From: Janthinobacterium sp.
Lineage (GTDB): Bacteria > Pseudomonadota > Gammaproteobacteria > Burkholderiales > Burkholderiaceae_D
Direction of reading: 5' to 3'
Assembly (NCBI GenBank): GCA_031431155.1
Contig: JANPCW010000204.1
Coordinates: 2,461-66,460, forward strand
Length of the DNA: 64,000 nucleotides
Below are positions 7,878 through 42,540 of this stretch, one piece after another (position 1 is the first letter of the stretch; the number at the start of each line of letters is the position of its first letter). The notes below the pieces were generated by a model. It searched no databases, was not told the origin of the DNA, and saw only the letters and a program-made list of their open reading frames with translations. Made by a program: the position numbers and the translations under genes.

Positions 7878-8753
7878 ATGCAAAACATCACCGAAGAAAA
7901 AATCACCCCTGCCAAGGCCGAAAAATACCTGAACCTCAACAAAGGCAACCGCTCCATGCGGGAAGGCGTGGCCGAGAAGTATGCCGCCGATATGCGCGGC
8001 GGCACCTGGACCGCCTGCGCGGCGCCGATTGTGTTCTACGATGACGGCGACTTGGCTGACGGCCAGCACCGGCTTTGGGCTATTGTGGAGGCACAAACAC
8101 CCCAAACTTTTCTCGTCGTTCGCGGTTTCCCGCGCCAGGCAGGGCTCAACATCGACGCCGGGCTCGCCCGCTCTTTGGTTGATAGCGGCCGGATCAGCGG
8201 CCGCGACACACATTTGTCGCACAATTTGATTGCCATTGCTCGCGCGGTCAACGACGGAGCGAGTGGGGGTATCGCCATTTCAAACGCCGCGAAGCTGGCT
8301 ATCGTTGAGAATCACCGCAATGCGGCCAACTTTGCAATGACCTTCGGCCCAAGGTCCAAGGGCTTGCGTAACGCGGTTGTTTTGAGCGCGATAGCAAGAG
8401 CGTGGTATCACGAAGCCGACAAGGATAAGCTGTGCCGTTTCGGCGAAGTGATGGGCAAGGGATTTGCCGATGGCGAACGAGAATCGGCAGCAGTGGCGAT
8501 CAGGAACTACATGATCACCAAAGGGCCGACTGCATCCACCACCGGATGCTGGCGCGAGACGTTTCTCAAGGTGCAAAACGCCATTTGGTATTTCATGCGC
8601 AGCAAGCCGTTGATGAACATTCGCGTCGTAAACGACGAGGCCTATGCGCTGGATAAGACAAGGTCTACCTCTGGCGGGGCCCGGAAAGCTGCCGCCAAGC
8701 CAAACTGGAAAGAAAGCGGGGTTTTGCGCGAAGCCAAAAAGTCGGTGGCGTGA
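7878..8753 (+). CDS. ParB-like nuclease domain protein
   Basis: The N-terminal domain carries the DGQHR motif (DLADGQHRLWAI). Confidence 0.7.
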   Translation: MQNITEEKITPAKAEKYLNLNKGNRSMREGVAEKYAADMRGGTWTACAAPIVFYDDGDLADGQHRLWAIVEAQTPQTFLVVRGFPRQAGLNIDAGLARSLVDSGRISGRDTHLSHNLIAIARAVNDGASGGIAISNAAKLAIVENHRNAANFAMTFGPRSKGLRNAVVLSAIARAWYHEADKDKLCRFGEVMGKGFADGERESAAVAIRNYMITKGPTASTTGCWRETFLKVQNAIWYFMRSKPLMNIRVVNDEAYALDKTRSTSGGARKAAAKPNWKESGVLREAKKSVA

Positions 8754-9103
8754 TGGAACGCCGCAGCTTTCTCGCCGGGATGCTCGCCGCATGCGCGGCG
8801 CCGGCCATCGTGCGCTCGGGCATCCTTATGCCCATTAGGCCTGCCGGGATCGACCTGTCGGCGGCGCCAAGCACGGCCGGGGTTTTCCTTGGCCCTGAGT
8901 TCGGGAGCTACGAGGGATTCAGGTTTGTCGAGTCGAAAGAGTTGGCCTGGATAGGTTCCGTCACAAACAACGACAGCGTGAGGATCAATCTATCGAAGGA
9001 GGGCAGCCGGGTGTTCGTCCCAAACAAGAGTGGCATTTTGAGAGTCTTCATGGATGGCTCGGCCACCATCAACGATCAGCAGCTTGGGCAAATGCCATCA
9101 TAG
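8750..9103 (+). CDS. small secreted protein with a twin-arginine (Tat) signal
   Basis: MMERRSFLAGMLAACAAPAIV fits the Tat consensus (S/T)RRxFL followed by a hydrophobic h-region. Confidence 0.55.
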   Translation: MMERRSFLAGMLAACAAPAIVRSGILMPIRPAGIDLSAAPSTAGVFLGPEFGSYEGFRFVESKELAWIGSVTNNDSVRINLSKEGSRVFVPNKSGILRVFMDGSATINDQQLGQMPS

Positions 9104-11137
9104 TAGCCAGCCGCCGCCTTCGGCAGGCTCCAATTCCCGATCCTCTGGCGGGATGTCCTTCACCGGGGCAGCGGGGATTTCATAGGCCCGGCTTTCCGAA
9201 TCGGCCTCCACCAACCTGGACTCGCGCAGCACGACGTAGATGCGTTGGCCCTTGGTGCCGTACACGGCATCCTGGTAGTCGCGCAGATAAAGGCGATCCA
9301 GCACATTCCCGGTGATGGCCACGCCAATCGTCGCGTCCATGAACTCGGTGAAGGCCAGCACGTCGGCCACCGCAGCGTTGAAGATCGCCGTGCCGGCGTA
9401 GGTGTCCGAAGGGGCCAGGGAATCGCTGACGGCGCCCACGGCCGCCAGGACGCTCGCTTGGCTATCCGCCGGAGCCAGGGAGTCACTGACCGCGTTGCTG
9501 GTGGTCAACAGCCCGGCCTGGGCATCCGAGACGGTCAGGGCATCCGCCACGGCCCCAGCAACCACCAGCAGGCCGGTCTGCGCGTCCGCAGGGGCCAGGG
9601 TATCCGCCACAGCCATGATGGTGCTGTTGATCAGCGCGGTCTGCGAGTCCGTGACCGTGAGGCTGTCGGTGACGGTCGAAAGCGTCGCAGCGTCGCCGGT
9701 CTGGCTGTCGGTGACGGTCAAGGAATCCGAAACCGTCATTACGACGGTGCTGATCAACCCTGTCTGGCTGTGCGATGGGGTCAGAGAGTCCGCTACGGCC
9801 CCTACAGCCGTGTTGAGCAATCCAGTTTGGGCGTCCGTGACGGTCAGGTTATCCGCCGCTGCACCGACGGCAGTGTTGAGCAGCCCAGTCTGTGAGTCAG
9901 CCGGGGTCAACGTGTCGGCCACGGCCATCACGACCGTAACGATCAGCGCAGTCTGCGAGTCGGCCGGCGTCAAGGCTTCAGAAACGGCTCCAATCGCTTC
10001 CAGGGCGCTGTTTTGGCTGTCCGCTGGTGTCAGAGTCTCGGTTCTGGCTCCGACGGCCACCAGGACGCTATTTTGCGAATCGGCTGGGGTTAGGGTTTCA
10101 GCGACATCGCCAATCCGCGTCAGGTTCGCCGTTTCGCTCTCAACTGGGGTCAGGGTATCGCTGACGGCACCGACCACCGTGGATAGGAGGCCGGTCTGGC
10201 TGTCGGCCGGCGTCAAGGTTTCTGTACGCGCGCTGACCGCAGTGCTCAACAACCCCGTCTGGGTGTCCGCTGGTGTCAGGGTGTCTGCGACGGCCAGGAC
10301 GGCGAAGTTGACAAGTCCGGCTTGACTGTCAGCCGGGGAGAGCGTTTCCGCCACCGCCCCCACAGCAACCAGGATACTTGTCTGTGAGTCCGCAGGCGTG
10401 AGAGTTTCCGTGCGCGTGTTGACCGCCGTGGACATCAGCCCAGTCTGGCTGTCAACCGGGGTAAGCGTGTCGGCAACAGCCAGGACGGCGAAATCCACCA
10501 GTCCGGTCTGGCTGTCCGCAGGCGTCAACGTGTCGGCTACGGCCATAACGACCGTGTTGATCAGCGCAGTTTGCGTGTCGGTTGGCGTCAGCGTATCGGC
10601 CACCGCCATGACGACCGTAGCGATCAGCGCAGTCTGGCTATCGACTGGGGACAGAGACTCACCGATAAGCGCGTCGCCCTCGACCGAGCCCCAGTCGCAT
10701 TGATCGACCAGGGCGGCGTCGGTGATGAGGCCGTAGTCCGGGTTGCTGTCCACCCCGGCTGTGATCAGGTCGTAGTCTTGGTTGACATCCCAGCAAGAGT
10801 GCTGAGCGATCTGAGTGTCGGCGACGGTAAGGGAGTCAGCACGCGCGCTGACGACGGCGTCGAGCAGCCCAGCCTGGGAATCAGCCGGGGATAGCGTCTC
10901 GGATACAGCCCCAACTGCTTCGAGCAGGGAGGTTTGCGAATCAACGACTGCGAGGCTGTCGGATACGGCCCCGACTGCGGTAGCAAGCAGGCCCGTCTGG
11001 GAGTCCGTGACGGCCAGGGTATCTGCCGCGGCGCCTGTGTACGTCGCTGGCGGCGGGACGTAAGCGGCTACTGCGACATTGATCCTCCGGGGCTTGCCCG
11101 GATACTTGACCTTCTGATAACTGAGGCGCTTGAGCAC
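9098..11137 (-). CDS. tandem-repeat fibrous virion protein (putative fibre or decoration)
   Basis: This is a 679-aa ORF and the last gene of the late operon. About 25 copies of a 19-21-aa unit (consensus near AVADTLTPADSQTGLLxTAVG) are flanked by unique N- and C-terminal domains. Confidence 0.7.
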   Translation of the reverse strand: MLKRLSYQKVKYPGKPRRINVAVAAYVPPPATYTGAAADTLAVTDSQTGLLATAVGAVSDSLAVVDSQTSLLEAVGAVSETLSPADSQAGLLDAVVSARADSLTVADTQIAQHSCWDVNQDYDLITAGVDSNPDYGLITDAALVDQCDWGSVEGDALIGESLSPVDSQTALIATVVMAVADTLTPTDTQTALINTVVMAVADTLTPADSQTGLVDFAVLAVADTLTPVDSQTGLMSTAVNTRTETLTPADSQTSILVAVGAVAETLSPADSQAGLVNFAVLAVADTLTPADTQTGLLSTAVSARTETLTPADSQTGLLSTVVGAVSDTLTPVESETANLTRIGDVAETLTPADSQNSVLVAVGARTETLTPADSQNSALEAIGAVSEALTPADSQTALIVTVVMAVADTLTPADSQTGLLNTAVGAAADNLTVTDAQTGLLNTAVGAVADSLTPSHSQTGLISTVVMTVSDSLTVTDSQTGDAATLSTVTDSLTVTDSQTALINSTIMAVADTLAPADAQTGLLVVAGAVADALTVSDAQAGLLTTSNAVSDSLAPADSQASVLAAVGAVSDSLAPSDTYAGTAIFNAAVADVLAFTEFMDATIGVAITGNVLDRLYLRDYQDAVYGTKGQRIYVVLRESRLVEADSESRAYEIPAAPVKDIPPEDRELEPAEGGGWLL
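9415..11032 (-). repeat. in-frame tandem coding repeats, about 60-63 bp period, about 25 units in two blocks
   Basis: There are 4 units at about 10823-11032 and 21 units at about 9415-10640. A unique Cys/Trp/Asp-rich insert (HSCWDVNQDYDLI...DQCDWGSVEGD) separates the two blocks. Confidence 0.8.
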
Positions 11138-11154
11138 TCAAGCTCCCCTTGGGT

Positions 11155-11634
11155 TTAACCGCCGATTTCGCGGAAACGGATGTAGCCGCTGAACGTCGTG
11201 GACGCCGCCGGGGCTGTGTGCAGGCCAATCGCGCAGCGAGAGGCAGAGCCCGCAGTCGGGCCGAGCACGAGCAACGGGTCGTCGAACGCGCCCTTCCAGA
11301 GCCAGCCGTTCAGGATGTTCTGCCCTTCCCGGCGCATGAGCGTCGTGACCGCCGAAGAAGCGGCAGCGAGCATGGTACGCGCCGTGCCGCCGTAGGCCGG
11401 AGAGCCGACTTCCAGTGGCGCGGGTGTGTTGGCTGTGCCCACTGCCTCGTTGCCGGTCGCCGTGCGCCAGAGCTTAAGGACAAGCTGCTCGCTGATCTCA
11501 ATGGTGTCCTGCGTGATGCAGATTTCCTCGACAAACGTCACGGCATCCGTGGGGTTTGAGAGGAAGAAGAACTCGATGGCCGTCGTTGCAGCAACGCCGT
11601 CGATGACTGAGGTATAGACACGTCCAAGGGCCAT
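11155..11634 (-). CDS. hypothetical virion-module protein
   Basis: ORF track entry lying within the late operon. Confidence 0.6.
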   Translation of the reverse strand: MALGRVYTSVIDGVAATTAIEFFFLSNPTDAVTFVEEICITQDTIEISEQLVLKLWRTATGNEAVGTANTPAPLEVGSPAYGGTARTMLAAASSAVTTLMRREGQNILNGWLWKGAFDDPLLVLGPTAGSASRCAIGLHTAPAASTTFSGYIRFREIGG

Positions 11635-11643
11635 AGGTTTCTC

Positions 11644-12390
11644 CTAAATTCTTACGCCGTAGGCGCGTCTTGCAAAAACTGGGTTGTGTACTGCCTCGAC
11701 TTCCCGCAGCCTGATTATATTTCCGCCACCCGTCTGCGCCACAGAGAGCGTCCAGCCGACAACGGGCGCAGCAGTAGCGGTGCCTGCGGTACAAGAAGCA
11801 GTGCTGGCTGATGCTTCGAGGTCGTTGCCGAGGGCGGTGGTGCCTTCTGTGGCTGGGCGCTCAGTGACCGCGCCGATGGTTGCCGATGCCGCTGTCAGCG
11901 TAGGCGTGCCAAAGGTGGAGTTGTCGCCAGCTATGACGGAGCCGGTGACAAGGAAGTCCCCGTTGGTGATGCCGGGGTTGGCGTCCATCGTAAGAGAAAA
12001 ACCCGTGCCGCTGGTGGTGTCCGAGCCTTTGGCAGCAGCGATGAGCCACTCTTTTCCTGCGGCCTTGCTGAACCCGCCCATGTAGCCCAGCGCAACGTTG
12101 CCCGATGTCACCGTCACCGTCACCGCAGCGTCACCGCTTCGCCAGAAGCGGTAAAACGATTTCCACAGCACCGAGCCAGTGTCGATGCCCGAGGCGGTTG
12201 AGCCGTTGGCTCCGTCACTGCCGGGGATAAGCTCCCACCCCGCAGGCACGACGATGTCGGCGTTGAATGGTTTGCAGCCGACGAAGATGATATTAACGTC
12301 ACCCGCTGCGTTACCCGTAGGCAAGGGTATGGATGCAACAGACGTAGTGCCTGCCGTCCACGCCCCTGGGGTGCGTGCTGCGATGGTCAT
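11644..12390 (-). CDS. hypothetical virion-module protein
   Basis: ORF track entry. The protein is Gly/Thr/Ala-rich and looks like a beta-rich protein. Confidence 0.6.
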   Translation of the reverse strand: MTIAARTPGAWTAGTTSVASIPLPTGNAAGDVNIIFVGCKPFNADIVVPAGWELIPGSDGANGSTASGIDTGSVLWKSFYRFWRSGDAAVTVTVTSGNVALGYMGGFSKAAGKEWLIAAAKGSDTTSGTGFSLTMDANPGITNGDFLVTGSVIAGDNSTFGTPTLTAASATIGAVTERPATEGTTALGNDLEASASTASCTAGTATAAPVVGWTLSVAQTGGGNIIRLREVEAVHNPVFARRAYGVRI

Positions 12391-12684
12391 TTATCTCAGC
12401 TTCCAATTACGGTACGCCACAAGCGCATACAAAACCGTCGCCGCCACGAGCAGGCCGTAGGCAATCCAAGGATAGCCCTGCCCCATGATGTGCAGGACGC
12501 CAAGCCAAACGATGGCGCAGGACACTACCTTGACCAAGAGCAACGCTTCCTTCACGCCGATCTTGTCCATCAACATTTTTAGTAATGGATTCGCTTCATA
12601 GTTGCCGGGTTTTTTTAATGCCAAAACTGTCGTGTAAGCATCTAAAACCTGAGCAACTACTAGGAGAAAAAATAGGGCGTTCAT
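12391..12684 (-). CDS. small integral membrane protein (DUF5658-like)
   Basis: It has three hydrophobic segments and a LDAYTT...EANPLL motif. The gene is visibly AT-richer than its surroundings. Confidence 0.6.
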   Translation of the reverse strand: MNALFFLLVVAQVLDAYTTVLALKKPGNYEANPLLKMLMDKIGVKEALLLVKVVSCAIVWLGVLHIMGQGYPWIAYGLLVAATVLYALVAYRNWKLR

Positions 12685-15442: not shown

Positions 15443-16270
15443 TCAAAGCGTGAGGGTATACGTGCAATTGAGAGTGTCACCGTTGATAACAGAGCGGCTA
15501 CCGCCCGAGAAATCACCAGCCGAGAACAAAATCCCGGTGGTGTTGTCCTTTGTCGCGCTGCCGCCGTTGTTGATGAAGCAACCGAACACCGTGCCGGTGG
15601 ACGTGATGGCAAAGGCCTGGGTCGGACTGGCCGAGGACCGAGCGCCGGCACCGGCGCCGGTCGCCGCGTTCATGGTCACGTCCTTGCGGTTGCCGGTGTA
15701 GGTCGGGGCGTTCGCCAAGCCCTGCTCCAGCCATGCGCCGTGGGAGGCTTGCGTGTCGCCCACAACCGCCGTGCCGGTGCCTTTGAGGCCCATGCGGATG
15801 GTCTGGGTGTAGGTCGAGCCCTTCATGTACTTGTCGAGCAAGTCCAGAGAGCCAACGTCGGTAACGATGTTGTCGAACGCCTCTGCGTGGAGCACGTCTT
15901 GAAACGGCCGCATCTGGGCTGTCAGCGCGGCTTCTTCGGCGCGCAGTGACACGAGTTCGGCCAGGGCCGTGTTGTACTCGCTGGCTTCCTCCAGCACGTC
16001 CTGGGCCAGCCCCAGAGCTTCGATCCAGGCCTTGAGCTTCTTCACGGGCGCTTCGAGTACAGCGGTTGTGAGGCTGAGTTGCTTGGGCACCAGCGGAAGC
16101 AGCATGCCCTCCATCCTGGTTTCGAGCGCAGCGATCTTCTCGGTCGATTCGTTGCGCGCAGTCCACAGCGGCCAGAACTTGGCATTCTTTTCGGGATCGG
16201 CGCTGGGGCGAAGGTGTTGCAGGCCGTATTGACCATGAACGCGCTTCTGGGGGGCTTGGATTTCGGACAT
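15443..16270 (-). CDS. hypothetical virion protein
   Basis: Start at MSEIQAPQ; the 77-codon extension in the track looks like noise. The C-terminal domain resembles that of CDS 40762-41268. Confidence 0.6.
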   Translation of the reverse strand: MSEIQAPQKRVHGQYGLQHLRPSADPEKNAKFWPLWTARNESTEKIAALETRMEGMLLPLVPKQLSLTTAVLEAPVKKLKAWIEALGLAQDVLEEASEYNTALAELVSLRAEEAALTAQMRPFQDVLHAEAFDNIVTDVGSLDLLDKYMKGSTYTQTIRMGLKGTGTAVVGDTQASHGAWLEQGLANAPTYTGNRKDVTMNAATGAGAGARSSASPTQAFAITSTGTVFGCFINNGGSATKDNTTGILFSAGDFSGGSRSVINGDTLNCTYTLTL

Positions 16271-16281
16271 GGCTTTCGCTC

Positions 16282-16560
16282 CTATCGTTGGACAATTCGT
16301 AGAGTCACCGACCGATCTTCCACCCTGGGGGTCGCGCCGGTGGTCGTAATCCGGCACGTTATGGTTTCGTTTGTCCCGGCGGTTCCGCCAGAGACGTAAA
16401 TTGTTGCAGTGTCCGCCGTGTTGGCTACCGCCACCTGGGTCAAGCCTGACGAAAGAACCCACGCCACCGAGGCGATGGAAACCCCAAGCGGGGTCAGCCA
16501 ATCCTGCCAGTCGAAGACATAGTCAAGCGTCGCGTTCGGGTCTTTCTTGAAGGTGGGCAT
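16282..16560 (-). CDS. hypothetical small virion protein
   Basis: Start at MPTFKKDPNATLDYVFDWQDWL. The protein looks like a beta-rich, Ig-like domain. Confidence 0.6.
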   Translation of the reverse strand: MPTFKKDPNATLDYVFDWQDWLTPLGVSIASVAWVLSSGLTQVAVANTADTATIYVSGGTAGTNETITCRITTTGATPRVEDRSVTLRIVQR

Positions 16561-34441: not shown

Positions 34442-35479
34442 TTAAGCCGACTCGCGGGTGCCCCAGTCTGCACTGCCGCGTAGCGCGTTCATCGCCGCTG
34501 CCGAAGCCGTCCCCGCGCTCTGCGCTGCCGCCTGCACCAGCGCGACGCGCGCTTTGATGTTCTCCGTGTACGCCGAGAGGTTCGCCTTGCGAATGTCCAC
34601 GTCGGCGTTTGCGTCGGCAATCGCCACCCTGGCGGGCAGTTCGACGGCTGAGATTTGGGCGTTGTAGAACGCAATCAGGGCTTGCGCCATTTTTGTCTTG
34701 GACTCGACCATTGATGTCGCAAGCTGGGCGCCGAGTTGCGGGCCAAGGGCGAGGGTCTTGATGTAATCCCCAGCCGACTGAATCGCCGCGATGCGCAGCG
34801 CCAGCGCCTTGTCGATGGCGAACTTGATGTTCTCGATTTCGATTTCGGCTTGCTTGATTGCCACGTCGCGCGACGCCTGGGCGATCTTGTCTCGGGCGTC
34901 TTGGTCAATGACCATGGCCTGATGGACCAACGCCCCAGGCGGAAGCGGGTAGCCCTTGGCCGCCCACATGGCGCTTGCTTCGTCCATGGCTCTTGCCGAA
35001 TCTCTCAGCACGCGCGAGCGGTCGCGCTGCCAGATTTGATCCTCCACCGTGGCATTCATCCCGGTGCCGCCGTTGACGATGGCGTTCTCCACCCAGGCCC
35101 TCGCCGCCGCCAGTTCAGCCCCCAGCGGGAAGTAGGTCGTGAAAAAGGTGGCCAAGCCGTTGCCAAGCAGCGCGGTGATTTCATCTGCCGTGCTTTGGTA
35201 CAGGGCGGTGAGTTGCGCTTCGGTGTAGTCGGTGATGTCTGGCGCGGGCGGGATGTCCAGCATCGCCGCGATGTCAACCTCGGTCGCTTGCGGGGCATTC
35301 GGGATCAGCGCCAGCGCAGCTTGCGTCTGCTCGTCCTGGCGGTTGAGCAGGATTTGCGCCAGACGAAGCTGCTCATTGAACACGCCCGTAACGAACGTCC
35401 CGCCAACCGCCGACCCAGCATAGGTGAAGGCCCAGTCGCCGCCGTCGCCGTTAAGGACGGGGAAAGGTTCTGTTGCCAT
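34442..35479 (-). CDS. internal virion protein (predominantly helical)
   Basis: ORF track entry. The composition is Ala-rich and helical, and the gene lies between a tail protein gene and the ejection protein genes. Confidence 0.55.
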   Translation of the reverse strand: MATEPFPVLNGDGGDWAFTYAGSAVGGTFVTGVFNEQLRLAQILLNRQDEQTQAALALIPNAPQATEVDIAAMLDIPPAPDITDYTEAQLTALYQSTADEITALLGNGLATFFTTYFPLGAELAAARAWVENAIVNGGTGMNATVEDQIWQRDRSRVLRDSARAMDEASAMWAAKGYPLPPGALVHQAMVIDQDARDKIAQASRDVAIKQAEIEIENIKFAIDKALALRIAAIQSAGDYIKTLALGPQLGAQLATSMVESKTKMAQALIAFYNAQISAVELPARVAIADANADVDIRKANLSAYTENIKARVALVQAAAQSAGTASAAAMNALRGSADWGTRESA

Positions 35480-37737
35480 TATCTGACTCTCCTTGTGAGG
35501 ACCGCTGGCGTGAACTCAATCGAATCGAGTTCAAAGTCGGCGCCGACCTCGTTGAATAGCTCGAACGTGAAGTAGTTTGCAATCAGCCCTTTGCCGATTT
35601 TAATTCGCTGCGCTTGCAGGAAATCCTCGTTCCTGTTTGTCTGGTAGGTGTGGGTCACGCCATTGGCGGTCACTTGCAGGTACAGGTCGCCAGAGGACGA
35701 TGCGCCGATGTAGCAGTTCGGGATCGACTTCTTGGCCGAAGTGCCGAAGTCATGCTTGCCAAAGTTCACCGATGACCGGATGGGGGATGCCCCGTCACCG
35801 TCGCCTTCGAGCAGGTACACCCCGTCGGGCTTCACGCCGTAGCTTGCGCCACGGAATTGGGCGAAGCTGTTGAAGTCATAGCTCTCATAGGCAACCGAGG
35901 CGCCGGTTTCATCGTTCACCACCCAGACCTCCGCATCCTCCGCGTACACCGGGATGCCCGCGAACACCTGGGCCTCGAACTCCATCACGGCTTGCATGAT
36001 GGCGCTGTAGGTCATGGTGACGGTGCCTTCGATGGTGTCCTGGACCGCTGCGTCCAAGATCGTCAGCGTCGCCAAGGTGGAAGACCCGGTGATGCTGGAG
36101 TACATCGACACGTCGATCTGCCCGTAGAAGGTGATCGTGCTGGTCGGAACAACAAGCTCGCGCATGGCAGCCTGGGTGTTCCCCTCAAGCCCGCTGGCGC
36201 TCACAGTCAGCGGCAAGAACGACATGACGGCCTGGGCATACTTCCCGCTAGTCTTCTGGCTCGCCATCATTTCCAGTGGCTTGAAGCTCATGTACCCGCC
36301 GACCCCGTACCACACACTGAATGCCCCAAGCGGCTGGTTCGTGCTGCTGGTCATCGTGTAGGTGCCCGCTGCCGCAGCAGTCGTGGTTGTCGATCCGCTC
36401 TGGAAGTTCCCGCCTATAGGAGCCCCAGGCGCTGCGCCTGTTCCAGACACGGTGATGCTGCCGTTGGCGTTGAACGTGATTGTCTGGGTCTGAACGGAGC
36501 CGTTGGGCAGCGTCATGGTGATGACGACGGAGCCGGTTGTCGGCTCGTTCGGGCTCGACACGATGGTCAACAGCCCGTCCTCAATCGTCCCCGTTCGCAC
36601 TTCACCAGAAGGGAAAGTGATGCTCACCACGATTCCAGGCGCACCGCTAAGGATGACGGTGATCGCGCCAGTGATGTAGCCGCGCTCGACGCTGGTTGAC
36701 ACCTTCGCCGTCGTCTGGATTGACGACCCGAGGGCGCTCAAAGTCAGTGGTGCGAAGCTCATGGCTGCGATGGCGTAGGTCGGCACCAGATCAGCCGCCT
36801 CTTCCGCGCTGACGGTCAGTTCCTCGAACGACATCACAGCGCCATTGATACGCCCCGCCACACCAGCATTCATCGCCAGTGGCAAGAACGACATGGAGCC
36901 GGTCGAAGGCTTCGTGCCGACGTACTCGTCAGTGAGGGTCAGGCGTTCTGTCACGCCGCGCGTGTAGGGCGACGCCTCTGTGGTGGTGTTTTCCTTGGCG
37001 CTCAGTTCAAGCGCCTCGAACATCATCACGTTGTTGATGACTGGGGTATCGACGTAATCCCCGCCTGCGTACAGAGCAGCCGTCAGGAACACGCGGCCGG
37101 TGCTTTGCAATGCGCTCTGATGGACCACGCTCGCGCCGATAGCGTAGCGCACGACATTGTTCATGCGGCTGATCGACAACTCCGTGCCAGAAGCCACCGC
37201 TCCGACGTAGGCAATCTCGATGCCTTTTTCATAGATGCGGGCAATGCCGTGCGTGACGTAGAAGCCGTGCTCGATGTCCTGATAAATTCCGCGCCGCGCG
37301 TTCTCGCGCGCAAGCCCGGTCACGCTCCCGATGGTGCCGGGGTTGACGGTGAAGCGGGCGATGCCGTGGCGGTCAAAGTACCTGACTGACCCAGCACCAG
37401 CGTTCCAGCCCAGATTGAAGTCATAGGTGACTTGGTACGCGCCTGCTGGCTGGCCGGGAGTTGGGGCGACGCCGGGGTCGTAGGGGTAATAGGTTGGAAC
37501 AAGCTGGCGCTTGCATTCGTATGGTCCTACCACGCCGCTTGTCGGGTAGATAGGAATGTGCCGCCATGTGCCATCCGGGTCTTGCGCCCAGGTATAGACG
37601 ACATCACGGTACTTGCACACCGTCGCGTAAGCCCAGGACGTGTAGGCATTGCGCGCCGGGTATCCGGGGCTTGCGACGATGCCAGGGCTCCCCGGCGTGT
37701 AGGTTGCCTTGACGTTCTTGAGAAGTTGATTCGTCAT
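35479..37737 (-). CDS. large tail structural protein (nozzle/tubular-like, tentative)
   Basis: This is a 752-aa ORF with five copies of an MSFxPL motif. The C-terminus is NYFTFELFNEVGADFELDSIEF. The gene order resembles that of a T7-like tail module. Confidence 0.55.
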   Translation of the reverse strand: MTNQLLKNVKATYTPGSPGIVASPGYPARNAYTSWAYATVCKYRDVVYTWAQDPDGTWRHIPIYPTSGVVGPYECKRQLVPTYYPYDPGVAPTPGQPAGAYQVTYDFNLGWNAGAGSVRYFDRHGIARFTVNPGTIGSVTGLARENARRGIYQDIEHGFYVTHGIARIYEKGIEIAYVGAVASGTELSISRMNNVVRYAIGASVVHQSALQSTGRVFLTAALYAGGDYVDTPVINNVMMFEALELSAKENTTTEASPYTRGVTERLTLTDEYVGTKPSTGSMSFLPLAMNAGVAGRINGAVMSFEELTVSAEEAADLVPTYAIAAMSFAPLTLSALGSSIQTTAKVSTSVERGYITGAITVILSGAPGIVVSITFPSGEVRTGTIEDGLLTIVSSPNEPTTGSVVITMTLPNGSVQTQTITFNANGSITVSGTGAAPGAPIGGNFQSGSTTTTAAAAGTYTMTSSTNQPLGAFSVWYGVGGYMSFKPLEMMASQKTSGKYAQAVMSFLPLTVSASGLEGNTQAAMRELVVPTSTITFYGQIDVSMYSSITGSSTLATLTILDAAVQDTIEGTVTMTYSAIMQAVMEFEAQVFAGIPVYAEDAEVWVVNDETGASVAYESYDFNSFAQFRGASYGVKPDGVYLLEGDGDGASPIRSSVNFGKHDFGTSAKKSIPNCYIGASSSGDLYLQVTANGVTHTYQTNRNEDFLQAQRIKIGKGLIANYFTFELFNEVGADFELDSIEFTPAVLTRRVR

Positions 37738-38468
37738 TCGATTTCTCGTGTGCCGTCGTGACCTGCCCAGAACAAGTTGCCCAAGGTTCCGGCGCGGAAC
37801 TCTTTGATCGTGATGCCTGGAGCAAGGCCGTCACTGGTGAATTGGCGCAAGCCGAGCCCAACCCATGTCTGAACGTTCGCGCGCCAGGAACCGGTCATCG
37901 TGCGTGAAATCTTCGACACCCCATCAACAAACACGGTAGCAACGTCACCGCGGCACTCCACGCGCAGGGTGTGATCGCCAAAGGTGCCACCGGCCACGTT
38001 GTAGTTTCCAGAGCCGGTAAACAGATTGCCTTCGTCCCCAATGTCGATTTGTTCGTTGGAAGCGCCGTTTACCGGCGTCCACGTCACGCGCCCGTAGTCA
38101 CTATTTTCCGCCCCGTAAGCTGGGTTCGGTTGTGTCTTGATCTTGAAGTACAGATTGACGAATCCGACATCATCGTTCGCGCCAATGTTGACATCGACCT
38201 CCACGAAGTAATCCACCAAGTTAAGCGGGGTTGCGCACCACGCATCGGATGTCCCCTCGTTGTGAGGCTCAGTCGCCGCCCCTGAACCGTTCAGACGCAA
38301 GTAGCTATTCGTGTTGCCCTCATACCACTTGTCGCCAGTCTCGGAAACGTGGTCGTTCGGCCCGACCAGTCCTTGGCTATTCTGCACATGCACATTCCCG
38401 CGATACAGCGGTGCGACCGGCGTGCCACCTGCGGTGCCGACGAACGAATCTTGGATGATGGTGGTCAT
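37734..38468 (-). CDS. putative ConA-like lectin/LamG-fold protein
   Basis: HTLRVECRGDVATVFVDGV and the overall beta-rich pattern suggest this fold. The assignment is tentative and made by eye. Confidence 0.35.
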   Translation of the reverse strand: MTTIIQDSFVGTAGGTPVAPLYRGNVHVQNSQGLVGPNDHVSETGDKWYEGNTNSYLRLNGSGAATEPHNEGTSDAWCATPLNLVDYFVEVDVNIGANDDVGFVNLYFKIKTQPNPAYGAENSDYGRVTWTPVNGASNEQIDIGDEGNLFTGSGNYNVAGGTFGDHTLRVECRGDVATVFVDGVSKISRTMTGSWRANVQTWVGLGLRQFTSDGLAPGITIKEFRAGTLGNLFWAGHDGTREIE

Positions 38469-40078
38469 GGCTGGTCAAACTCTCCAGGGAATGCTGGAAA
38501 GACGTAGGGCTTTCGAGCGCCGCCAAAGTTGGTGAAGAACACATTGAAGTCCGGGTCCGCCGTTTCGTCCAGCCCGTTCCCAGGCGGCTTGAGTGAAGTC
38601 ACTTGCTTGAATTCAGTGAAGTCTCCGTCGGTGCTGAAAAACACCAGCTTGTCCAGATCGTAGTCTGGCACGGCGAAGACGATTTTGCCCTTGTTATCCG
38701 CGTCCACATAGGGCTCTATCACCGCGCCGAAGTTGGACAGGTTGTTGTCGTTCATGCGCCCAGGCAGCACGCCTGAGAAATTCCAGGTCGAGCCGTAGTC
38801 GCGCGTGAACATGATCTTGTTGTCGGTGCCGTCACGCCGAACAGGCATATACATGCACCCGTCGCCAAAACCAAACTGGCACGTCCGAAGGTCGTTGGTG
38901 TAGCCAAAGAACCGCAGGTAATCGCCTCCGAGCGAAGCACCGTTGGAACTGGTGAACCAATCATCCGGGGGCCATGTGATCCTGGCATAGCCAGCCCCAT
39001 CAGTCCCGAGGAACGCCATCGGCCCGAAGCGCGCGTCAGGTGGTGTGTCCATTGGGTCGCCCATCATGTCCTTGAACCCATTGGAAATTATCAGCAGCGA
39101 CTTGCCCTGCCCGAGATAGACGATCAGCGAACTGAATGCCAAGCCCGTGAGTTGCAGGTTTTCGTAGTAGGCACGGTCTGGGCCATCAATCGGGTACTCG
39201 AACAGGTATGTAGTCAGGAACGCAGCAGCGGCAGAGGCCCAGGTGTCGCCGTGATCGGTCGAGTTCACAAGGTATGGCGCGACCTTCGGCAGCACCAGGG
39301 TATCGTCTTCCTCCACCACATGAATGCCTTGAAGCCTGCCCAGGCCAATCACGAACGGCGCGAAGGCGATGTTGTTGCGCCCCGCGCTATACACGGGGGC
39401 GACCTGAGTCATGGTCTGCGTCCCGGTGTCACCCACATAGAAGATCGGCACCCGGTTGTCAACGTGCGGCGAGCCAGTCCAGTAGGTTGCGGCCAGCCCG
39501 AAGCGATACCGCTTCGTGTCGTCGTCCCATCCCGAGCAAGTAAAGTAGAAGGTGTGCAGGTCGGTGAGCAAGCCGCTGATCTGGATGTCATCAATGAAGG
39601 TGGTCGAGCGGCCCATTCTCTCGGGGTCGCTGGCAAGGTACTGCGCCCAGGACAAGGCCTGCATCATCACGGGCCAATGTGTCACTGCGTCGGTGTCTGC
39701 GCCGATGTCGTTCAGGTTGCTGAACAGCGCCAGGACGAATCCGTCGCCCACATAGGGCAGGCGCGCGAGCGTTGGATTCGCCGCCAGTGTGCCCAGCAGG
39801 TAGAACGGCGTCAGCTTGGTGATGCGGCCAGATTCGTCATCGTCGATGTCGATAGCAGCCGGAAAAATGGCCGCTGAATTGAGTTTGTAGAGCCCGATCA
39901 GTGACGGCTCACCGACGAACACTTCGCTCTCGTAGAACCCGTTCTTCTTGTACGTCCTCGACCCCGGAGACTCCTTCGTCAGGAACGGCGTATTTACCCG
40001 TGCGAGCGCATCCCGGTCGCCCTGCGAGCCACGGGCGTAACCATTGCGCTCCCTGGTGAAGTCATTCGGGTACTTCAT
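38465..40078 (-). CDS. BNR/Asp-box repeat (sialidase-like beta-propeller) protein, putative tailspike or receptor-binding protein
   Basis: Asp-boxes are STDHGDTW (39239-39262) and TRDYGSTW (38783-38806). A degenerate third box is STDGDFTEF. Confidence 0.55.
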   Translation of the reverse strand: MKYPNDFTRERNGYARGSQGDRDALARVNTPFLTKESPGSRTYKKNGFYESEVFVGEPSLIGLYKLNSAAIFPAAIDIDDDESGRITKLTPFYLLGTLAANPTLARLPYVGDGFVLALFSNLNDIGADTDAVTHWPVMMQALSWAQYLASDPERMGRSTTFIDDIQISGLLTDLHTFYFTCSGWDDDTKRYRFGLAATYWTGSPHVDNRVPIFYVGDTGTQTMTQVAPVYSAGRNNIAFAPFVIGLGRLQGIHVVEEDDTLVLPKVAPYLVNSTDHGDTWASAAAAFLTTYLFEYPIDGPDRAYYENLQLTGLAFSSLIVYLGQGKSLLIISNGFKDMMGDPMDTPPDARFGPMAFLGTDGAGYARITWPPDDWFTSSNGASLGGDYLRFFGYTNDLRTCQFGFGDGCMYMPVRRDGTDNKIMFTRDYGSTWNFSGVLPGRMNDNNLSNFGAVIEPYVDADNKGKIVFAVPDYDLDKLVFFSTDGDFTEFKQVTSLKPPGNGLDETADPDFNVFFTNFGGARKPYVFPAFPGEFDQP

Positions 40079-40102
40079 AACGCCCCCGTTCAGGGCAGAG
40101 GA

Positions 40103-40540
40103 TTACAGCGTCGGCAACGCGATGCTGAAATAGTCGATGGTGCGCGAAGCCGCAGCAGTGAACGTGGTCGATTCCAAGTTCAGGTCAGCGCCAGCCGTGC
40201 CGACGGACATCTGAATCCGGCGCTCCGTGGTGGACACGCCACCCGTGTCAGATGCCAGTACCACCAATCGGCCGTAGCCGGCCGTGCCGCTTGCGTTGCA
40301 GCTTGAGTCCTGCCACGTTTCCGCAGCCTTCGACAACACGCCGCCCGAGGCTGACGGGCCGAGGCTCAATCCCGTGCCGCCACCGCTGACAGTGAACTCG
40401 GCGAGCAGCGTGCCGGTGACGGCCGCATCCGCCGTGGCAGGCTCCGCGCCCGTATAGATGCGCAGCACGGCCAGGGCGAGGCCTGCCTTGACAGAGCCGG
40501 TATCGAGTGCGTAGTTTCTTAGACCTGTTGAGGCGCGCAT
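40103..40540 (-). CDS. hypothetical small virion protein
   Basis: ORF track entry for a beta-rich, Gly/Thr/Ala-rich protein. Confidence 0.6.
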   Translation of the reverse strand: MRASTGLRNYALDTGSVKAGLALAVLRIYTGAEPATADAAVTGTLLAEFTVSGGGTGLSLGPSASGGVLSKAAETWQDSSCNASGTAGYGRLVVLASDTGGVSTTERRIQMSVGTAGADLNLESTTFTAAASRTIDYFSIALPTL

Positions 40541-40541
40541 T

Positions 40542-40762
40542 TCATTTCTCCTGTGGTTGACCGGACCAAATGCGTCCGGCGATTACTTTGCAAATTGTGC
40601 TACCACTCACGCCGAACTCGGCAGCCAATGTGGCCTGTGTGACTGTGCCGCTGGAAAACCTGGCTCGAATTTCACGCGCCAACGTGACTCGAAGCTGGAA
40701 GCCGAGCCGATATACCGCTTGCCATCCAAGCGGTTGGTGATTGAATATATGCCGGTTTCCAT
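40542..40762 (-). pseudogene. decayed GIY-YIG homing endonuclease
   Basis: Hand translation from the ATG at 40762 gives METGIYSITNRLDGKRYIGSASSFESRW (canonical GIY..YIG), then nonsense and a stop at 40607. A shifted frame continues as AREIRARFSSGTVTQATLAAEFGVSGSTICKVIAGRIWSG (a typical HEase C-terminal HTH), with a stop at 40542-40544. The nuclease core between them is missing. Confidence 0.7.
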
Positions 40763-41268
40763 CACGCAGAAATGAGGGTGAAGCCGGCCGTCACGCGCAG
40801 CACTTCGTCGTCGGCCAGTGGTTTCGGCGAAGCAAATCTCACCGCCGACAACAGGGTGCCAGACGTTGCACCCTTGGCGGATGCCGATGTGATGAAGCCG
40901 CCATAGATCGTGACTGTGGTGTTTATGGTGAACTCGGCCCGCGACGCTGAATTGTCCACAGCGCCGGCAGCCACCGTGCCGAACACCAGAATCTCGCGCG
41001 TGGCCTCGTCATAGGCAGAACTCTCCGTCGCCGAACCTGGGAACGTAGCGGCGGTGTCGCCGTTGACGGGCGTGTAGTTGCCGCTGAACAGGCCCATGTA
41101 CCACGATGTCACCTGGGCGCCGCCCTTCAACTCGGTGTTGAGAAGGTGGTTCAGGCCTTCGGTGGGCATCAGGTTTTTGATGACCTCCGAGTCGCGCACG
41201 TTGCCGGCCTTGTCGATCACTTCGATCAGGTAGGTGAATGCGGCCTTCATTTCGTCTTTTGCTTGCAT
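40762..41268 (-). CDS. hypothetical small virion protein
   Basis: ORF track entry. Its C-terminal domain is similar to that of CDS 15443-16270. Confidence 0.6.
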   Translation of the reverse strand: MQAKDEMKAAFTYLIEVIDKAGNVRDSEVIKNLMPTEGLNHLLNTELKGGAQVTSWYMGLFSGNYTPVNGDTAATFPGSATESSAYDEATREILVFGTVAAGAVDNSASRAEFTINTTVTIYGGFITSASAKGATSGTLLSAVRFASPKPLADDEVLRVTAGFTLISA

Positions 41269-41283
41269 GATTTGCTCCTGAGT

Positions 41284-42540
41284 TTATAGCGGCGTCGCTG
41301 CTTTGCGCACGATTTCGCCGCTCATGTATGAATAGGCGGCGGCGCCGGTTTGTTCCACACCAAAGCCCGCTGCAACGATCTGTTTCATGCCATCGCGTTC
41401 TCGGTAGTATGAGGCTCCCGAGACGGCTGCATTCAAGGCGAGATTCTTTTCCTGGACGTTGTTCAATGAACCGTCGGCTGCGGTGACAACCACCCCCCGG
41501 TCGGACATCCAGAAGGCGCGCTCGCTGTCAGGCGTCATCCCGCCCGTGCGCGCGACGCCGCCATAGGGCAGCACTTCGTCGGCCTTTGCGGTGGCGATGT
41601 CGCCAGTGAAGCGGTACGTCAGCTTTTCCGTGGCGATGTAGGTGTGATCCGGGGTGCATTCGACCACGGTGATTGGGTCGGCGAACGGGATGAAGTTGCG
41701 CGAGGGCCGGTACAGGCCCAGGGCATACGGGTCCGAATAGAACAGGAACCGCCCAACAGCAACGAGCAGGCGGCCCGAGCCATAGCGCACGATTTCCCCG
41801 GCCGGCATGGGCGCGAGCAGCGCCGTCTGGCTTCGGCCTTGAAGCTGGGGCATGGTGGCAATGGTCAGGCTCGCCTGCGGCGCGATCAGCGCCCTGGCGA
41901 GAAACAATTGGTCGCCGTTGACCGGGCTCATAAACACCAGGATGCCCGTGATTCCCGTCGGGAAGGCCGCTGGCAGGCCCGAAATGATGATGCCCTGCCC
42001 AGCCACCACTTCGACCTGTTGGATGATCGTGGCGGCCGATTGCGCCAGTTGCACGTCATGGTAGGCAAGGCAGACTTGGTACAGGCCGGCAGCGAGCGAT
42101 CCAACCCCGCCAGCAGTCACCACGGGCTCCGGGTTGATCGTCGGAAGGGACAGGGCCTTGTCCACGCCGCCAACGACGCGCCGCAGCACAGAGCCGTCGG
42201 TGAAGATGACCTCGCCATTGGCATTGGTGTAGGACAGGCGCGCGCCCGGCGCGATGCCGGTTCGGACCTGGGTTTTGGTTGGGGCGTCCCGCTCGCCCGA
42301 GAGGGAATAGAGAACCGTGCCGTCAACAAAGAAGGACTGGTCCGCGCCGGACCAAAGGGAATGGCAGTCGGACCCGGCGACAACTTTCTCGGAGCCCAGG
42401 CGGCGCTTGATGGTTCCGTGCGCCGTCATGTCCACGTTCACGGCAGAGCGCAGGAAGGCGCCCTTCACGCGAGACAGTTCTTGGTCTTGCAGGCGGTTGT
42501 TCACCCCGAGGGTGAAGGGACCGAGTTTTTTCGGCTCCAT
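41284..42540 (-). CDS. tail/adaptor structural protein (tentative)
   Basis: This is a 418-aa ORF in the tail module. I recognise no diagnostic motif. Confidence 0.5.
   Translation of the reverse strand: MEPKKLGPFTLGVNNRLQDQELSRVKGAFLRSAVNVDMTAHGTIKRRLGSEKVVAGSDCHSLWSGADQSFFVDGTVLYSLSGERDAPTKTQVRTGIAPGARLSYTNANGEVIFTDGSVLRRVVGGVDKALSLPTINPEPVVTAGGVGSLAAGLYQVCLAYHDVQLAQSAATIIQQVEVVAGQGIIISGLPAAFPTGITGILVFMSPVNGDQLFLARALIAPQASLTIATMPQLQGRSQTALLAPMPAGEIVRYGSGRLLVAVGRFLFYSDPYALGLYRPSRNFIPFADPITVVECTPDHTYIATEKLTYRFTGDIATAKADEVLPYGGVARTGGMTPDSERAFWMSDRGVVVTAADGSLNNVQEKNLALNAAVSGASYYRERDGMKQIVAAGFGVEQTGAAAYSYMSGEIVRKAATPL

Follow-up and report, generated by a model that had tools for sequence, protein, structure and literature searches.

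Tandem 20-21-aa repeats in a phage late-operon protein suggest a free-standing rope for a bead-chain virion fibre

We analysed 64,000 nucleotides (nt) of DNA assigned to Janthinobacterium sp. (NCBI GenBank assembly GCA_031431155.1, contig JANPCW010000204.1, positions 2,461 to 66,460; hereafter the window), which are part of a phage contig that binning had placed in a metagenome-assembled genome. The terminal minus-strand gene of the phage late operon codes for a protein of 679 amino acids (aa), here called P0001, with 25 tandem repeat units. With moderate confidence, we read P0001 as the free-standing rope of a bead-chain virion fibre, in which each of the 25 units would dock one bead dimer. 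This reading rests on the anatomy of the repeats, on homologies, on gene neighbourhoods and on the match in period with a solved rope, and from these we infer docking, bead identity, polarity, fibre length and location in the virion.

Chain-like phage fibres (GP4, A1002 and VP1 type) are built from dimers of a 140-171-aa protein, which line up along a rope and attach to it by beta-sheet augmentation (PMC13730344). In the Pseudomonas podophage A1002, the fibre-dock domain of the nozzle protein gp39 (aa 243-468) serves as the rope and takes up 11 dimers (PMC13730344). In the Ralstonia podophage GP4 the rope is separately encoded and carries 5 gp80 dimers, and gp77 is the collar with the fibre attachment sites (PDB 8JOU; PMC13730344). 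The A1002 dock thus offers 20.5 aa per dimer (226 residues for 11 dimers), and the P0001 units are 20 or 21 aa long.

Repeat anatomy of P0001

The original prediction for this gene, made from the sequence alone, described about 25 tandem repeats arranged as 4 units, an insert, 21 further units and a unique C-terminus. A script on the D-S-Q anchors, which lie 20 or 21 aa apart, recovered precisely this layout with 25 units (Table 1). The unit consensus is V-A-D-T-L-T-P-A-D-S-Q-T-G-L-L-x-T-A-V-G-A, with Leu kept in all units and Asp and Gln in 23 of the 25 each. BLOSUM autocorrelation has its maximum at a lag of 21 (score 1.36), and the motif chain reaches 23 as compared with a maximum of 5 in shuffled sequences; the periodicity is far above chance expectation.

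In terms of DNA these are old repeats: the mean pairwise identity of the units is 55% in DNA (maximum 76%; 48% in protein), the longest exact DNA stretch in common is 17 nt, and Tandem Repeats Finder reported no array in the gene. Logan contigs, which are short-read assemblies and not long reads, cover most of the gene in two more samples of the freshwater-sediment study that supplied the source sample, with 0 differences, indels or joints; a third further sample yielded short parts of the gene only, and the source sample the whole gene. The DNA divergence and these identical contigs agree with the earlier view that the imperfect repeats are no recent assembly artefact.

The Cys/Trp/Asp-rich insert contains an internal duplication (NQDYDLIT and NPDYGLIT) between CWD and CDW; lying between units 4 and 5, it may act as a small hinge that is stabilised by disulfides or metal. 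The C-terminus resembles that of the family member P0085 (pairwise expectation value (E) 2e-6). Mini-repeats of the type E-x-R-x-(Y/F)-x-(I/V), with a period of ~9 aa, follow the main repeats in P0001 (3 copies), P0085 (3) and P0124 (7), and weaker E-x-R-type mini-repeats were seen in P0023, P0027 and GP4 gp79. These mini-repeats may be an anchoring element.

The P0001 repeat family

P0001 alone matched nothing in Pfam (E <= 0.01), PHROGs or the PDB sequences, and a profile of its repeat family gave no match in the PDB; nor does P0001 carry a curli-repeat/PbH1-type signature by Pfam, PDB sequence or PDB profile search. The profile searches thus agree with the original prediction, in which the unit was not recognised as a known fibre repeat. 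A word-indexed search of 5.8 billion proteins found 30 relatives, and an exhaustive search found 271 cluster representatives at 50% identity (closest E 1e-23), all of which align to P0001 through the repeat region only. The family proteins are 175 to 3,313 aa long. Repeat number ranges in the family from a few to ~34; for 162 proteins the median motif-chain count is 11 and the highest is 34. A tblastn search of 50,697 phage records with P0001, its repeat region and P0008 gave no match, and neither did megablast of the 10 kb around P0001 against phage records; the low-complexity filter of BLAST probably masks the repeats. Seven proteins (P0064, P0138, P0106, P0117, P0113, P0112 and P0033) end in an acidic-then-hydrophobic tail (DEELLxLLL-like), which suggests a shared C-terminal docking helix.

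Repeat number also bears on the earlier proposal of a fibre of tunable length. On an evolutionary scale the proposal stands: the comparison of copy number among relatives gave ~14 units in the repeat protein of locus L016 versus 25 in P0001, both accompanied by a 159-aa open reading frame (ORF), and the family extends to ~34. Frequent slippage is unsupported, because units have at most 17 identical bases in common and no length variants were present in the covered parts of the three other samples.

The general layout of the family is a variable globular N-terminal domain, the repeats and a short C-terminal region. The N-terminal domain is SPRY, Laminin_G_3 (lectin-like domains found in several members) or the domain encoded by a 248-aa ORF near P0001 in the window. 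This layout mirrors that of gp39 and was therefore counted for the rope reading. Some members carry PHROG virion-structural-protein domains, and every homologue neighbourhood that we inspected is a virion structural module. Both findings argue against P0001 being a non-virion late accessory protein, e.g., a secreted or cell-surface adhesin or decoy, as does its basic N-terminus, in which no signal peptide is evident by eye. Its terminal place in the operon, behind the gene for a small membrane protein (DUF5658), and its want of annotated relatives would suit such a role, but we consider it very unlikely.

Links between P0001-type repeats and bead-chain ropes

The sequence link from the P0001 repeats to a solved dock appears to run indirectly, via fused family members. 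Three proteins matched by P0001 through their repeats (P0018, P0022 and P0031; E 3e-10 to 2e-5 among 5.8 billion proteins) consist of ~14 ETLTPTDTL-type units and, behind them, a 150-aa domain. In P0031 this domain is homologous to the nozzle anchor (beta-propeller-C/platform-C) of KPP25 gp06 (first-pass phmmer, E 9e-7). KPP25 gp06 is a member of the A1002 gp39 family, and phrog_26502 is the family of gp39. Since they stand directly before the anchor domain in these three proteins, P0001-type repeats occupy the position of the gp39 dock. Two PHROG profiles show the same arrangement. Positions 317-615 of phrog_26502 (dock and anchor) align to aa 125-441 of P0018 (E 1e-10); in phrog_12240, profile positions 221-387 form a gp39-like anchor, and the repeat regions of P0157 (E 5e-13) and P0088 (2e-10) align to positions 10-240. 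A hidden Markov model (HMM) of the anchor domain, run over 160 family proteins, found no carriers besides P0018, P0022 and P0031.

Gene neighbourhoods point in the same direction. In each of the seven loci whose flanks are long enough (L002-L008), a gp41-type bead gene is present upstream of the repeat gene at a distance of at most 10 kb. These loci come from partly related phages and amount to ~3-4 independent lineages; among the 50,697 phage records, only 51 have a member of this bead family. The beads of L002-L008 are far nearer to a third bead paralogue of the window than to its 168-aa fibre II homologue, and of all window proteins this third bead comes nearest to the beads found with P0001-type ropes in other loci. 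A Pfam Gp77 gene stands directly downstream of P0085, P0023 and P0021 (loci L007, L009 and L010); gp77 is the GP4 collar in the cryo-electron microscopy (cryo-EM) paper on A1002 (PMC13730344). In locus L020, a homologue of the 159-aa ORF is followed by a 320-aa protein with a 20-aa period and then by a Pfam Gp80 bead, i.e., a homologue of GP4 gp80.

Bead-chain genes in the window and known systems

The window itself holds a complete A1002/KPP25-type cluster at 35479-42540 (nozzle-base, fibre II, fibre I and nozzle-rope), with the gene order of KPP25. Five MSFxPLxxSA-like motifs were seen in the 752-aa nozzle-rope at a spacing of ~20-24 aa (aa 283-337 and 482-516), together with a ~140-aa insert within the dock region. 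The third bead gene adjoins the Gp77-family ORF. The bead by itself matches PDB gp41 weakly (E 0.6). The listed 352-aa ORF at this place (15443-16501) is over-extended, its 5' part overlapping the Gp77-family ORF in another frame, and the third bead gene probably begins at the ATG at 16270. With the Gp77-family ORF, tblastn found mainly actinophage minor-tail neighbours, and none of the phages matched was GP4-like. The beads of the window are of the gp41 type, and its genome gave no significant match to Pfam Gp80.

P0001 resembles the A1002 dock (gp39, PDB 44NX/26GP/26LA; KPP25 gp06; phrog_26502) in its period of ~20 residues, and the whole A1002-type cluster is present in the same phage. The A1002 dock differs in being part of the nozzle protein, in having no obvious sequence repeat and in carrying 11 dimers, whereas P0001 is a separate protein without an anchor, with a clear tandem repeat of 25 units that is split by an insert. 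GP4 is similar in that its rope stands apart from the nozzle, and the window has both a Gp77-family gene and beads of the same class. However, GP4 has 5 dimers as opposed to 25 units, its gene order is different, and its bead is Pfam Gp80 rather than gp41 type. The separately encoded GP4 rope is probably gp79 (MH638294, locus L015, 57947-58924), to judge from gene position and period: this 325-aa protein is encoded between the bead gp80 and gp78/gp77 and has about ten 20-aa units (GxGxIDLxGxG-like). The gp79 sequence has no PDB match, and although it has a period of ~20 aa like P0001, there is no detectable sequence similarity between the two.

ORFs upstream of P0001

The 159-aa ORF has homologues at 60-86% identity in many metagenomic contigs of very different context, with protease and capsid genes as neighbours in L016, and glycosyltransferase, methyltransferase and radical S-adenosylmethionine genes in L018. 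Its conservation far exceeds that of the repeat protein encoded after it, and it has no relative in the PDB, Pfam or PHROGs. In two relatives (L016 and L020) a repeat protein again comes directly after the homologue of this ORF. The L016 repeat protein has 384 aa with ~14 units of 21 aa, and over its first 28 residues it shares 61% identity with the N-terminus of P0001 (E 4e-10).

The domain of the 248-aa ORF stands N-terminal to the repeats in P0085, P0124, P0027 and P0136, its only carriers in the family. The N-terminal domains of P0003 and P0004 were also considered as related to it, which BLASTP and hhalign against a mixed alignment did not support.

Structure prediction and alternative folds

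Full-length P0001 was modelled poorly by AlphaFold2 (31-row alignment; predicted local distance difference test (pLDDT) 41), and this model was excluded from the fold search. For aa 241-600, a 98-row alignment gave a beta-solenoid with two strands per unit, with a mean pLDDT of 70 and a predicted TM-score (pTM) of 0.62. The top match of this model in VIA-align was the curli protein CsgA of Pontibacter korlensis (PDB 8C50; Z 23.8, root-mean-square deviation (rmsd) 9.2 A over 307 residues); beta-helix tailspikes and adhesins came next (Z 15-20, rmsd 3-4). Matches in BFVD were to uncharacterised phage proteins only (probability up to 1.0), and Foldseek against the PDB found none significant (best E 0.29). 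CsgA and the right-handed beta-helix tailspikes are thus the nearest folds to the repeat model, with two strands per ~20-residue unit as in the model; but CsgA has no sequence relationship to P0001, the rmsd is large, and the context of P0001 is viral and structural, not amyloid secretion.

The solenoid model raises a serious rival, namely that P0001 is an autonomous, beadless single-chain beta-solenoid with one unit per rung. Such a protein would form a rigid ~12-nm rod of 21 rungs, with a stub of 4 rungs, and would serve as a fibre shaft or as a spacer presenting the C-terminal domain. The aa 241-600 model and its matches to CsgA, tailspikes, adhesins and phage proteins speak for it. The alignment behind the model, however, holds repeat regions in arbitrary register, including a shifted self copy, and the unit-to-unit contacts may be an artefact of it; for this reason the model is only suggestive of a beta-solenoid formed by isolated repeats. 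The poor full-length model and the lack of a significant Foldseek match in the PDB count against the solenoid as well. In addition, the positions kept across the family are polar (E..T..D) and not those of a hydrophobic core, and a self-sufficient solenoid leaves the co-occurrence with beads, the fusion to a nozzle anchor and the Gp77/Gp80 neighbours unexplained. We therefore judge this rival unlikely, and prefer a rope to a self-sufficient shaft because the gene context and the domain layout of the family point that way. The beta-solenoid or fibre shaft of the original prediction accordingly keeps the AlphaFold2 fold and the virion-fibre context on its side, but the evidence from the family favours a rope with bead dimers.

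A trimeric intertwined shaft (triple beta-helix or beta-spiral), with the C-terminal 89 aa as a trimerisation or receptor-binding knob, would fit the location of P0001 in the fibre region, where an Mtd_N tail-fibre gene of the late operon lies upstream of it, and poor monomer models are usual for obligate trimers. But P0001 matched none of the described trimeric fibre repeat families (Pfam, PHROGs, PDB profile), the better model is a monomeric solenoid, and repeats of the family are fused to domains of a hexameric, single-chain rope protein. The C-terminus, moreover, contains short E-x-R mini-repeats and no recognisable knob. Homotrimer co-folding of aa 385-679 gave a score of 0.00 with the fold of the segment itself uncertain, and was counted neither way. 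We give a trimeric shaft hardly any weight.

Proposed model of the P0001 fibre

In the rope that we propose, P0001 would be an extended single chain, and each 20/21-aa repeat would be a short beta-strand site that completes the beta-sheet of one bead dimer (gp40/gp41/gp80 fold). This docking is proposed by analogy with the A1002 gp39 fibre-dock and with the separate rope described for GP4. The 4 + 21 sites could then hold up to ~25 dimers per fibre, and at the A1002 spacing of ~27 A per dimer the fibre would be ~60-70 nm long, so that repeat number would set fibre length. It would be a second chain fibre of GP4-like kind, in addition to the A1002-type one. The likeliest bead is the third paralogue, next to the Gp77-type collar gene. 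The N-terminal peptide and the 159-aa ORF probably make up one assembly end, as an anchor or cap, and the 248-aa ORF probably supplies in trans the terminal globular domain that other phages carry as a fusion with the rope.

Several points weigh against this model. P0001 has no nozzle anchor domain by the anchor HMM, and hhalign found no similarity of the family repeats to gp06, to the 752-aa nozzle-rope or to GP4 gp79. The bead gene closest to P0001 is 4.3 kb away, the adjacent 159-aa and 248-aa ORFs have no detectable bead homology, and in L016 there is no bead within 6 kb. The aa 241-600 model is a compact solenoid, with a pLDDT of 77-88 in its first 200 residues. The phage already has a nozzle-rope, so that a second rope is an extra assumption. 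Finally, the repeat family is known from sequence and gene context only.

If both ropes are nevertheless real, the phage might have two bead-chain systems: an A1002-type one with the nozzle-rope and the beads at 40762-41268 and 40103-40540, and a GP4-like, collar-associated one with P0001. Beads and docks would pair specifically (the third bead with ETLTPxD-type repeats), the 159-aa ORF would be a hitherto unrecognised adaptor that binds the N-terminal peptide of P0001, and the 271-cluster family would make rope-and-bead fibres common and length-programmable. We regard this combined picture as possible though doubtful, and offer equally tentatively the corollary that the 25 sites of P0001 would exceed twice the largest solved chain.

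Genome setting

The minus strand of the window carries, in order, terminase, portal, capsid and tail genes, a gene for a 5,243-aa polyvalent protein, the Mtd_N tail-fibre gene and P0001. P0001 starts at a GTG, 17 nt past the stop of the preceding gene, behind a strong Shine-Dalgarno site (AAGGGGAG). At its other end the gene converges with a plus-strand gene (8750-9103), the two overlapping by 6 nt, and plus-strand recombination genes run toward the 3' end of P0001. No promoter and no convincing terminator were found around it. P0001 was not found in the 60 related bacterial genomes searched, and is thus not a conserved prophage gene in them.

P0001 also has no self-match in either of two very large protein databases, unlike the 159-aa ORF of the same contig, which is present there as P0167. 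Antisense ORFs on the plus strand (307 aa and 216 aa; one at 9402-10325) may have been called in its place, and close orthologues of P0001 may be hidden by antisense gene calls in the same way.

Table 1. Coordinates in the window of P0001, its parts and the other genes discussed
Feature	Position	Strand	Remark
P0001, whole gene (679 aa + stop)	9098-11137	-	candidate free-standing rope of bead-chain fibre
Shine-Dalgarno site of P0001, AAGGGGAG	11143-11150	-	5 nt before GTG
N-terminal peptide of P0001, aa 1-36, MLKRLSYQKVKYPGKPRRINVAV...	11030-11137	-	conserved in L016 repeat protein
Repeat units 1-4, aa 37-111	10805-11029	-	D-S-Q anchor script
46-aa insert rich in Cys/Trp/Asp, aa 112-157	10667-10804	-	splits the repeat array
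Repeat units 5-25, aa 158-590	9368-10666	-	predicted docking sites, one per 20/21 aa
Unique C-terminal region, aa 591-679 (89 aa) + stop	9098-9367	-	E-x-R-x-Y-x-I mini-repeats
159-aa ORF	11155-11634	-	candidate rope partner or adaptor; directly upstream of P0001; conserved
248-aa ORF	11644-12390	-	domain fused N-terminal to repeats in four family members
Small membrane protein gene, DUF5658	12391-12684		precedes P0001 in operon; Pfam
Third bead paralogue, gp41-type C-terminal domain with ~125-aa N-terminal extension	15443-16270	-	phrog_8123, jackhmmer
Gp77-family ORF	16282-16560	-	Pfam PF23148, 76.7 bits; GP4 collar family
Nozzle-rope, homologue of A1002 gp39 (752 aa)	35479-37737	-	PDB 26gp_Q, E 2e-24
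Bead, homologue of A1002 fibre I gp40	40103-40540	-	PDB 44nx_B, E 1e-23
Bead, homologue of A1002 fibre II gp41 (168 aa)	40762-41268	-	PDB 26la_U/44nx, E 4e-34
Nozzle-base homologue	41284-42540	-	phrog_8040, family of KPP25 gp09

Implications

Cryo-EM has shown bead-chain fibres in three podophages only, with 3 to 11 dimers, and a rope in the form of a tandem sequence repeat is not described in the literature consulted. P0001-like genes are likely under-counted, because P0001 is missing from two databases, where antisense ORFs were probably called instead. If our reading is true, the rope design would be widespread in uncultured phages (P0001 and its 271 cluster-level relatives), and a rope would be recognisable from sequence as a 20-21-aa repeat together with a bead gene. 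The repeat count in a genome would then give the length of the fibre, which would be a simple rule for setting the reach and avidity of a phage adhesion organelle, and would also offer a modular scaffold for engineering.

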